Below are positions 851-1,428 of a stretch of DNA of 64,000 bases, one piece after another. The notes beneath the pieces are model-generated. The model was given only the letters and a program-made list of their open reading frames with translations. It made no database searches and had not been told where the DNA came from. Location: IMG/VR virus record IMGVR_UViG_3300025450_001231; one strand, 5' to 3'. The number at the start of each line of letters is the position of its first letter. Position 1 is the first letter of the stretch. The translations under genes were made by a program, and so were the position numbers. This DNA comes from a virus. Lineage: Duplodnaviria; Caudoviricetes.

Positions 851-930
851 TAAATACACAAGCGGCCTTTGAGCATCATCCCGCTATACAAATTCTGCTG
901 CCTATGCTACAATTAACATAGGAGAAAAGC
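851..930 (+). promoter_or_regulatory. late promoter plus structured queD leader (candidate preQ1-I-like riboswitch)
   Basis: TAAATA 851-856; stem AGCGG(861-865)/CCGCT(881-885) with loop ending CATC; A-rich tail ATACAAA; hairpin CCTATG(901-906)/CATAGG(917-922) overlapping the AGGAG RBS. Confidence 0.5.
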
Positions 931-1428
931 ATGACACCCGTAACTTACAAATATACCTCAACAAAAGAATATGTGGACGCATTTCCTTGCGCTTACAGAC
1001 AATGGCGTGCAGACAGTCATTGCAATACTATTCACGGATACAGTTTTAGTATGAAATTTTATTTTGGTACTGACCAACTAGATGTTCGCAATTGGGTTGC
1101 CGATTACGGCGGCTTAAAAGAACTAAAGAAAATATTAGAGAGTCAATTTGATCATACGCTGCTAGTAGCAGAAGATGAACCAGAAATGGAAACATACAAG
1201 TTACTAGAATCAAAGGGGTTAGCAAAACTAACTATTTTACCAAAACTTGGTTGCGAGGGACTGGCTGATATGCTTTACAAGTATGTCAACAGTGTTTACA
1301 TTCCTGATATGTGGGGCCCAGGTGAAGCAGAAAGACTTTGGTGCTATAGAGTTGAAGTAAGAGAAACACAAGCTAATATGGCATTCAGAGAAGGTCATAG
1401 AGAATGGAATGAGGATTTATTTGTATGA
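931..1428 (+). CDS. queD: 6-carboxytetrahydropterin synthase (PTPS/QueD family)
   Basis: HCNTIHGYS motif, WVADYGGLKELKKILESQFDHTLL, GCEGLA, VEVRET; queE lies nearby. Confidence 0.85.
   Translation: MTPVTYKYTSTKEYVDAFPCAYRQWRADSHCNTIHGYSFSMKFYFGTDQLDVRNWVADYGGLKELKKILESQFDHTLLVAEDEPEMETYKLLESKGLAKLTILPKLGCEGLADMLYKYVNSVYIPDMWGPGEAERLWCYRVEVRETQANMAFREGHREWNEDLFV

Follow-up and report, generated by a model that had tools for sequence, protein, structure and literature searches.

A preQ1-I-like pseudoknot in the queD leaders of jumbo phages, most likely a new riboswitch variant with inverted logic

Class I preQ1 riboswitches (preQ1-I) are built on an H-type pseudoknot, in which a strictly conserved cytosine before the 3′ strand of helix P1 pairs with preQ1 (2024 review, PMC11625349). 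The floor of their pocket is a G-C pair, U6 of loop L1 reads N9-H, an adenine of L3 reads the minor-groove edge, the A-rich L3 lies in the groove of P1, and the translational members hold bases of the Shine-Dalgarno (SD) sequence within helix P2 (PMC11625349). The known preQ1 riboswitches are all OFF switches, repressing genes of biosynthesis and transport (PMC11625349). Here, we describe an element of ~45 nucleotides (nt) in the leader of a queD-like gene, located in a stretch of 64,000 nt of phage DNA (IMG/VR record IMGVR_UViG_3300025450_001231; hereafter, the window). It shares the layout of preQ1-I and most likely represents a new riboswitch variant resembling preQ1-I, carried by jumbo phages and inverted in its logic. 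The window derives from an 83.8-kb viral contig (reverse strand; estimated completeness 24%), which occurs in freshwater and lake metagenomes. Relatives of this contig measure 216–364 kb and two of them carry terminal repeats (G001 of 364 kb and G003 of 223 kb), hence the assignment to jumbo phages.

A first-pass annotation of the window had proposed a riboswitch for this leader, and the sequence features on which it drew are all present (Table 1): a TAAATA box, a 5-bp stem AGCGG/CCGCT enclosing the loop CCTTTGAGCATCATC (866–880), the A-rich tail ATACAAA behind the stem, and a hairpin CCTATG/CATAGG that overlaps the SD sequence AGGAG ahead of the ATG at 931. Folded alone, the 84-nt leader of the window has a minimum free energy (MFE) of -15.5 kcal/mol with a z-score of -1.09, and 30 of 200 shuffled sequences fold as well. 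A single-sequence fold is not above chance, and the evidence has to come from the leaders of relatives.

For this comparison 26 distinct queD leaders were aligned, gaps were placed in the variable L1, and the pairs of P1 and of the pseudoknot P2 were counted. Paired cells amounted to 94.2% (73.5% in shuffles) and the covariation score was 0.561 (0.166 in shuffles), with none of 500 shuffles reaching either observed value, statistics that are inflated by the relatedness of the sequences. When the pairing partners were slid by 1–3 columns as a control, pairing fell to just 34–49%. Specifically, P1 is paired in 100% and P2 in 88.5% of the cells, and 7 of the 10 pairs change on both sides, namely all five of P2 and two of the five of P1. 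Among 86 distinct leaders P1 occurs in five versions (AGCGG/CCGCU in 61, ACCGG/CCGGU in 13, AGUGG/CCACU in 6, AGAGG/CCUCU in 4 and AUCGG/CCGAU in 2), while P2, which is 3–7 bp long, has more than 10, such as GGCA/UGCC, GGCU/AGCC, GGCG/CGCC and GGUG/CACC, and further GGGC/GUCC, GACAU/AUGUC, GACAC/GUGUC and GACUU/AAGUC. Across homologous queD leaders, then, P1 and the pseudoknot proved to be conserved and to covary, and the lack of both, which the first-pass annotation had named as the outcome speaking against its proposal, was not seen. The comparison strongly supports a real structured RNA in the queD leader.

The consensus runs in the order P1a, L1 (usually YCU plus 0–6 nt), P2a GGCN, L2 UCAUC, P1b, WUAMAAA, YUCUGC and P2b NGCC. 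The preQ1-I-like layout suggested for the window is borne out in the relatives: a conserved and covarying H-type pseudoknot with a 5-bp P1, G-C closure, an invariant cytosine, an A-rich L3 and a short P2. In an alignment of 59 sequences C880, C881, C882 and G865 are invariant; C880 was left free in the selection of these sequences, and the search pattern itself fixed G864–G865 and C881–C882. Further invariant columns of our two alignments include A888, A892, U894, C895, G897 and C898, and the last two bases of L2 are UC in 75 of the 86 leaders, CC in 7 and AC in 4. The block UCUGC was considered as an alternative partner of P1a, with which it pairs in the MFE structure of the window; since it stays constant when P1 changes and shows no covariation with it, an alternative helix was rejected.

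Concerning P2, the first-pass annotation had paired AGCA (872–875) with TGCT (896–899). This complementarity exists, but the register does not stand: in relatives the covarying 3′ strand begins directly after UCUGC, which in the window corresponds to UGCC at 899–902, three bases downstream. The window carries GAGCA where the consensus has GGCA, and its P2 in the conserved register therefore comprises three pairs and an A872×C902 mismatch. The calculated energies are -1.9 kcal/mol for this register, -2.5 kcal/mol for the four-pair register proposed earlier and -4.2 kcal/mol for the consensus GGCA/UGCC.

Membership of the described families was searched in Rfam 15 (E ≤ 10, lax filters) with the window leader (855–935) and two variants (L036 50–125, with the AGAGG/CCUCU stem, and L059 2418–2500), and no preQ1-I, preQ1-II or preQ1-III match was obtained. 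Assignment to the preQ1-I family itself (RF00522) thus has to be given up; the element is a preQ1-I-like pseudoknot by layout but falls outside the family. No other riboswitch family matched either, whether at gathering thresholds or at E ≤ 10, and the element corresponds to no catalogued RNA family. Weak matches to traJ_5, miRNA families, rli28 and Yfr17 were discarded because of the wrong strand or a score far under the threshold. A scan of the whole window at gathering thresholds gave a Polynucleobacter-1 RNA as its sole match, elsewhere in the window; it is full-length (RF01718, 49982–50120, plus strand) and reaches 86.7 bits, the gathering score being 37.

The distribution of the element was followed with a covariance model built from the 26 leaders. 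The QueD-like protein of the window has at least 574 relatives on viral contigs. In the best 80 loci of the window's own QueD clade the model matches directly 5′ of queD in 74 (30–68 bits), and in a second clade, whose QueD is just 59% identical and for which 80 loci out of 356 matched contigs were scanned, likewise in 74 (34–68 bits). Taken together, the element is kept in 148 of 160 related phage contigs, with compensatory base changes. The window's contig and five relatives of 216–364 kb, two of them complete, have one strong match each, and their remaining matches stay below 14 bits. In order to cover prokaryotes, the AGCGG version of P1 alone was used as a search pattern on one genome per species of ~185,000 bacterial and archaeal species. 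Among the at least 120 matches listed, 118 were chance matches within GC-rich coding DNA and two were genuine copies, both on contigs of a Haliscomenobacter metagenome-assembled genome (MAG) and each followed by queD. These copies (L131 and L199, on the low-GC contigs 1 and 58 of Haliscomenobacter sp.) present two differing versions of the motif, and their QueDs are 59% and 84% identical to that of the window. They are probably binned phage contigs, so that there is no evidence for a cellular version; alternatively, they may hint at the host. No RNA data set was listed as containing the 2-kb stretch, and for queD alone the listed shares were small (at most 0.09). BLAST of the region in near and distant modes against 50,697 GenBank phage records gave no match, and no description of a riboswitch in a phage queD leader was found in the full-text literature outside subscription journals.

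The arrangement of P2 relative to the ribosome binding site determines the predicted direction of control. The two cytosines that close P2, C901 and C902, are engaged by G922 and G921 in the anti-SD hairpin, whose energy of -5.8 kcal/mol changes to +0.4 kcal/mol once the shared CC/GG pairs are lost to P2. In 55 distinct leaders, forming the aptamer (modelled by blocking its bases, with P2 formed) raised the probability of an unpaired SD from 0.33 to 0.73, with a rise in 48 leaders and a fall in one. The cost of opening the stretch from the SD through AUG+3 goes from 7.15 to 4.17 kcal/mol with P2 and is at least 1 kcal/mol lower in 79 of 86 leaders. A second platform was found in 11 leaders, where the P2b strand (AUGUC or AAGUC) and its flank pair with GAUGGC at the start codon; there the AUG is ~0–3% unpaired in most leaders when the RNA is free and 26–67% unpaired with P2 formed. 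Because the P2 3′ strand is at the same time the anti-SD strand or the anti-start strand, formation of P2 should free the ribosome site; a common logic in two unrelated platforms speaks for translational ON switching. The feedback repression envisaged in the first-pass annotation does not agree with this arrangement, in which P2 takes two cytosines from the anti-SD strand and should release the SD; modelling of the leader predicts activation and not repression.

In the mechanism that we propose, a transcript from the TAAATA-box promoter would begin almost at the aptamer. With no ligand, the CC would pair with the GG of the SD (or, in the second platform, the P2 strand with the start codon) and the ribosome site would be closed. 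A small ligand with a guanine-like pairing face would bind C880, stacked by the G-C top of P1, and lock P2, which would then outcompete the downstream hairpin, so that the site opens and translation is turned on. Candidate ligands would be an intermediate of the 7-deazaguanine pathway, guanine or one of its nucleosides or nucleotides, or a pterin, for instance the one made by FolE; 7-deazaguanine intermediates, guanine and pterins all share a face that a cytosine can read. On balance, and with modest confidence, we favour the leader being a cis-acting structured RNA that is most likely an undescribed riboswitch class controlling the translation of the queD-like operon in the ligand-on sense. 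Ligand binding and identity, the direction of switching and the transcription start of the leader are what we infer; granted a riboswitch, ON control is the probable direction and OFF control clearly the lesser prospect.

Two promoter-like elements coincide with this RNA. A TAA[AG]TA box ends at most 14 nt, most often 5 nt, 5′ of P1 in 64 of 85 distinct leaders, and TAAATA lies at -80 to -10 of 15 of the 46 window ORFs (open reading frames) of at least 100 aa, against 2.8% of random 70-mers. The promoter placed ahead of the stem by the first-pass annotation is thus borne out as a promoter-like box enriched before the ORFs of this phage. Its labelling as "late" is unproven, as the T4 late octamer TATAAATA occurs four times in the window against 6.4 expected and is not enriched. 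A sigma-70-like promoter was found in the 60 nt upstream of P1 in 10 leaders. Within the leader itself, a putative sigma-70-type promoter of the arrangement T[AT]TACA-17-TGnTATAAT recurs at a constant offset in 72 of the 75 main-type leaders, 44 of which have a perfect TGnTATAAT, and it is absent from the 11 leaders of the other platform type. This embedded promoter would explain the conservation of the hairpin loop. Since its -10 ends 6–7 nt before AGGAG, transcripts from it (start ~920) would lack the aptamer and the anti-SD strand. The sequences suggest that a host-type promoter could yield riboswitch-free mRNA and a phage-type promoter gated mRNA.

A more elaborate scheme, which we advance only tentatively, would combine these elements into a phage-specific new class on the preQ1-I scaffold. 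Its rebuilt pocket (no U6, added UCUGC) would bind a ligand other than preQ1, such as 7-carboxy-7-deazaguanine (CDG), preQ0, a guanine nucleoside or nucleotide, or a FolE pterin, and would turn on a DNA-hypermodification operon; nested with the host-type promoter, it would let early transcripts escape and leave phage-promoter transcripts ligand-gated.

Several points weigh against an activating riboswitch, apart from the inflation of the shuffle statistics mentioned above. ON control of a biosynthetic operon, which in some relatives also includes a transporter of the YhhQ/Vut_1 type, would be unusual and unexpected. Imposing P2 frees UAUGCU, for which AGCAUG at the start codon offers a weak partner (-3.5 kcal/mol in the window); the median predicted accessibility of the AUG then falls from 0.54 to 0.27, with a fall in many main-type leaders, so the holo state would not be fully open. 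The window's own P2 is weak, with its three pairs and a mismatch. The covariation of the SD hairpin, for which the first-pass annotation had also called, is present but comes to few events: the hairpin is nearly invariant in the 75 main-type leaders, and compensation from G-C to A-U is seen in L027/L029 and L031/L035/L038, so that one or two compensatory events give it little covariation support. The conservation of ACA in L3, of the hairpin loop CUAUAAU and of the fixed spacing can be explained at the DNA level by the embedded promoter. Finally, any ligand named on the basis of sequence is conjecture.

Covariation proves structure and not ligand binding, and the leader could work with no small molecule bound. 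It might be an operator, recognised by a protein of phage or host that represses or activates translation, or a constitutive pseudoknot whose presence at the 5′ end governs the stability of the mRNA or the efficiency of its translation. Recognition by a protein would also be in keeping with the single strands UCUGC and UCAUC, both invariant, and with no family match there is no precedent for a ligand. We consider this explanation rather unlikely, given that the layout reproduces the preQ1-I ligand pocket (the cytosine before P1b, the G-C floor and the A-rich L3) always before a gene of the 7-deazaguanine pathway, that the mutually exclusive design of P2 and anti-SD hairpin is typical of riboswitches, and that the element is present in one copy per 200–360-kb genome, which argues against a general operator.

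Unlikely as well is an OFF-type feedback riboswitch, in which a pathway product (preQ0, preQ1, CDG or a deoxy form) would bind the pseudoknot and lower queD translation, possibly because the freed UAUGCU re-pairs with the start-codon region or because a compact pseudoknot by the SD blocks the ribosome. This explanation has on its side the repression exerted by all known preQ1 riboswitches on biosynthesis and transport genes (PMC11625349), the biosynthetic nature of the operon with a Vut_1/YhhQ-like transporter in 9 loci, and the drop in median AUG accessibility with the UAUGCU/AGCAUG pairing described above. It is opposed by the P2 3′ strand being the anti-SD strand and not the SD, by the reduction of ~3 kcal/mol in the cost of opening the SD through AUG+3, seen in 79 of 86 leaders, and by the second platform type, in which formation of P2 frees the start codon.

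That the conserved block is mainly DNA, a strong sigma-70-type (early) queD promoter with incidental RNA pairings, is very improbable: its fixed offset, the perfect extended -10 in 44 leaders, its occurrence in the window too and the odd sequence conservation of the hairpin loop are accounted for, but the compensatory changes of P1 and P2 (with P2a upstream of the -35 and P2b in the spacer) and the 6-bp CCUAUG/CAUAGG complementarity are left unexplained, and 11 leaders keep the pseudoknot without such a promoter. The embedded promoter is best seen as an additional element overlapping the RNA.

In some relatives a homing-endonuclease gene interrupts the motif. L242 carries, at 813–1424, an extra 5′ half-motif (P1a through P1b) and behind it a gene for a 188-aa homing endonuclease (phrog_314, E = 3e-13), which has a TAAATA box of its own; the complete motif follows at 1433–1480. 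P1 of the complete motif is ACCGG/CCGGU, while that of the half copy is AGCGG/CCGCU. Similar half-motifs exist in L239, L241 and L276 (813–840 or 817–844), in L025 (1358–1383) and in L046 (1789–1811).

Concerning the genomic context, the queD-like gene is followed by genes for a cupin, a small protein, a MazG-like nucleoside triphosphate pyrophosphatase and a QueE-like radical S-adenosylmethionine (SAM) enzyme (to 3128). The QueD-like and QueE-like proteins have PHROG family matches, and the NCBIfam QueD and QueE models match them only below the cut-offs. Upstream, on the same strand and in this order, are a 5′-truncated ORF, a GFO/IDH/MocA oxidoreductase, a zinc alcohol dehydrogenase-like protein, three unassigned proteins, FolE, three small ORFs and a cupin. 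The truncated ORF (L214 6383–7576, minus strand) marks the end of the window's contig (G000), ~6.3 kb before window position 1. Its full-length family (521 aa, more than 7,000 relatives) carries the motif GDSGGFQ, and the predicted structure (pLDDT 83.6) has the fold of a tRNA-guanine transglycosylase (TGT), with the Zymomonas mobilis TGT as the top Foldseek match (E = 5e-7). The protein is probably a divergent DpdA-like DNA transglycosylase. The Pfam models of TGT, DpdA and QueC gave no match over the cut-off, either on the contig or on the five large relatives, so that the TGT fold of the 521-aa family, missed by the Pfam TGT and DpdA models, was recovered via structure prediction only. An identical TGT-fold protein occurs on a 264-kb contig, hence a longer assembly of this phage exists. 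Both complete relatives (G001 and G003) carry the queD leader motif and neither has a QueC over the Pfam cut-off, which makes canonical preQ0 synthesis of the modified base unlikely. Apart from the transporter, queD is followed in relatives by a B12-binding radical SAM enzyme, a methyltransferase and a cytidylyltransferase-like protein. By its gene content the pathway resembles DNA modification of the 7-deazaguanine type, with CDG as its end point or branch point.

Table 1. Positions of the features of the queD-like leader in the window.
Feature	Position	Strand	Evidence or remark
TAAATA promoter-like box, 4 nt 5′ of P1	851..856	+	Probable start of the riboswitch-bearing transcript; box enrichment
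P1 5′ strand AGCGG	861..865	+	100% paired, 2/5 pairs covary
L1, 2–9 nt in relatives, usually starts YCU	866..872	+	Leader alignments
P2 5′ strand GCA (consensus GGCN); A872 faces C902 (mismatch); alternative register AGCA 872–875	873..875	+	Covariation
L2 UCAUC; its last base, the invariant C880, corresponds to the specificity cytosine of preQ1-I	876..880	+	Alignment
P1 3′ strand CCGCU	881..885	+	Alignment, covariation
L3: A-rich AUACAAA (886–892) and nearly invariant YUCUGC (893–898)	886..898	+	Alignment
P2 3′ strand UGCC; C901–C902 common to the anti-SD hairpin	899..902	+	Covariation, sequence
Anti-SD hairpin CCUAUG/CAUAGG, 10-nt loop, buries A920–G922 of the SD	901..922	+	Folding energy, near-invariance
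SD AGGAG (920–924) and start codon (931–933) of the queD-like gene	920..933	+	Sequence
QueD-like PTPS-family gene, 165 aa	931..1428	+	Pfam PTPS 2e-16
Putative embedded sigma-70-type promoter: -35-like TATACA 885–890, 17-nt spacer, TG 905–906, -10 TACAAT 908–913	885..913	+	Consensus scan

To our knowledge, very few riboswitch classes are native to phages. If our reading is true, the smallest known riboswitch fold has an ON-type relative in phages, an example of how this scaffold can be re-tuned, and the ligand, once named, would reveal a metabolite that these jumbo phages monitor. The phages would build their guanine replacement with FolE, the QueD-like and QueE-like proteins and a divergent TGT-fold enzyme, without QueC. 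The overlapping promoter and the homing-endonuclease gene within the motif illustrate the dense layering of regulation in phage leaders. As the RNA measures just ~45 nt, exists in hundreds of natural variants and has a clear P2/anti-SD design, the proposal is directly accessible to binding assays and reporters, and the RNA could serve as a compact ON switch.

Among described systems preQ1-I (RF00522) stands closest. Both are small H-type pseudoknots at the 5′ end of an mRNA of the queuosine/7-deazaguanine pathway, with a 5-bp P1 with G-C closure, a short P2 joining the P1 loop and the 3′ tail, an invariant cytosine that immediately precedes the P1 3′ strand (with a U before it in 75 of the 86 leaders, which is the type I arrangement), an L3 rich in A after P1, and control of translation via the ribosome-binding region. 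They differ in L1, whose first base in the phage element is U in 37, C in 42 and A in 7 of the 86 leaders (C in the window), so that U6 of preQ1-I is not conserved; the conserved U two positions later (YCU) might stand in for it. Furthermore, the phage L1 is longer and variable (2–9 nt), and its L3 has the invariant six-base YUCUGC between the A-tract and P2, which is without a preQ1-I counterpart. The departures already pointed out in the first-pass annotation, a C as first base of L1 and longer loops, are therefore confirmed and fit an altered ligand; the altered pocket suggests a different one that retains a guanine-like pairing face. The P2 3′ strand of the phage element is a complement to the SD and not part of it, which predicts ON and not OFF, and the element has so far been seen on phage contigs only. 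PreQ1-II (RF01054) and preQ1-III (RF02680) are likewise pseudoknotted aptamers in leaders of queuosine genes, with a cytosine reading the guanine-like face (PMC11625349). They are, however, HLout pseudoknots of about twice the size with extra helices, and neither has an Rfam match in the phage leader. What riboswitches have in general, a covarying aptamer in a 5′ leader overlapping a platform with mutually exclusive pairings, is found in the queD leader as well. With the adenine riboswitch of Vibrio vulnificus add the leader shares the logic only, the latter being an H-type pseudoknot and the former a three-way junction with another ligand and gene context. In the add switch, ligand-stabilised pairing captures the strand that masks the SD or start codon and thereby turns translation on.

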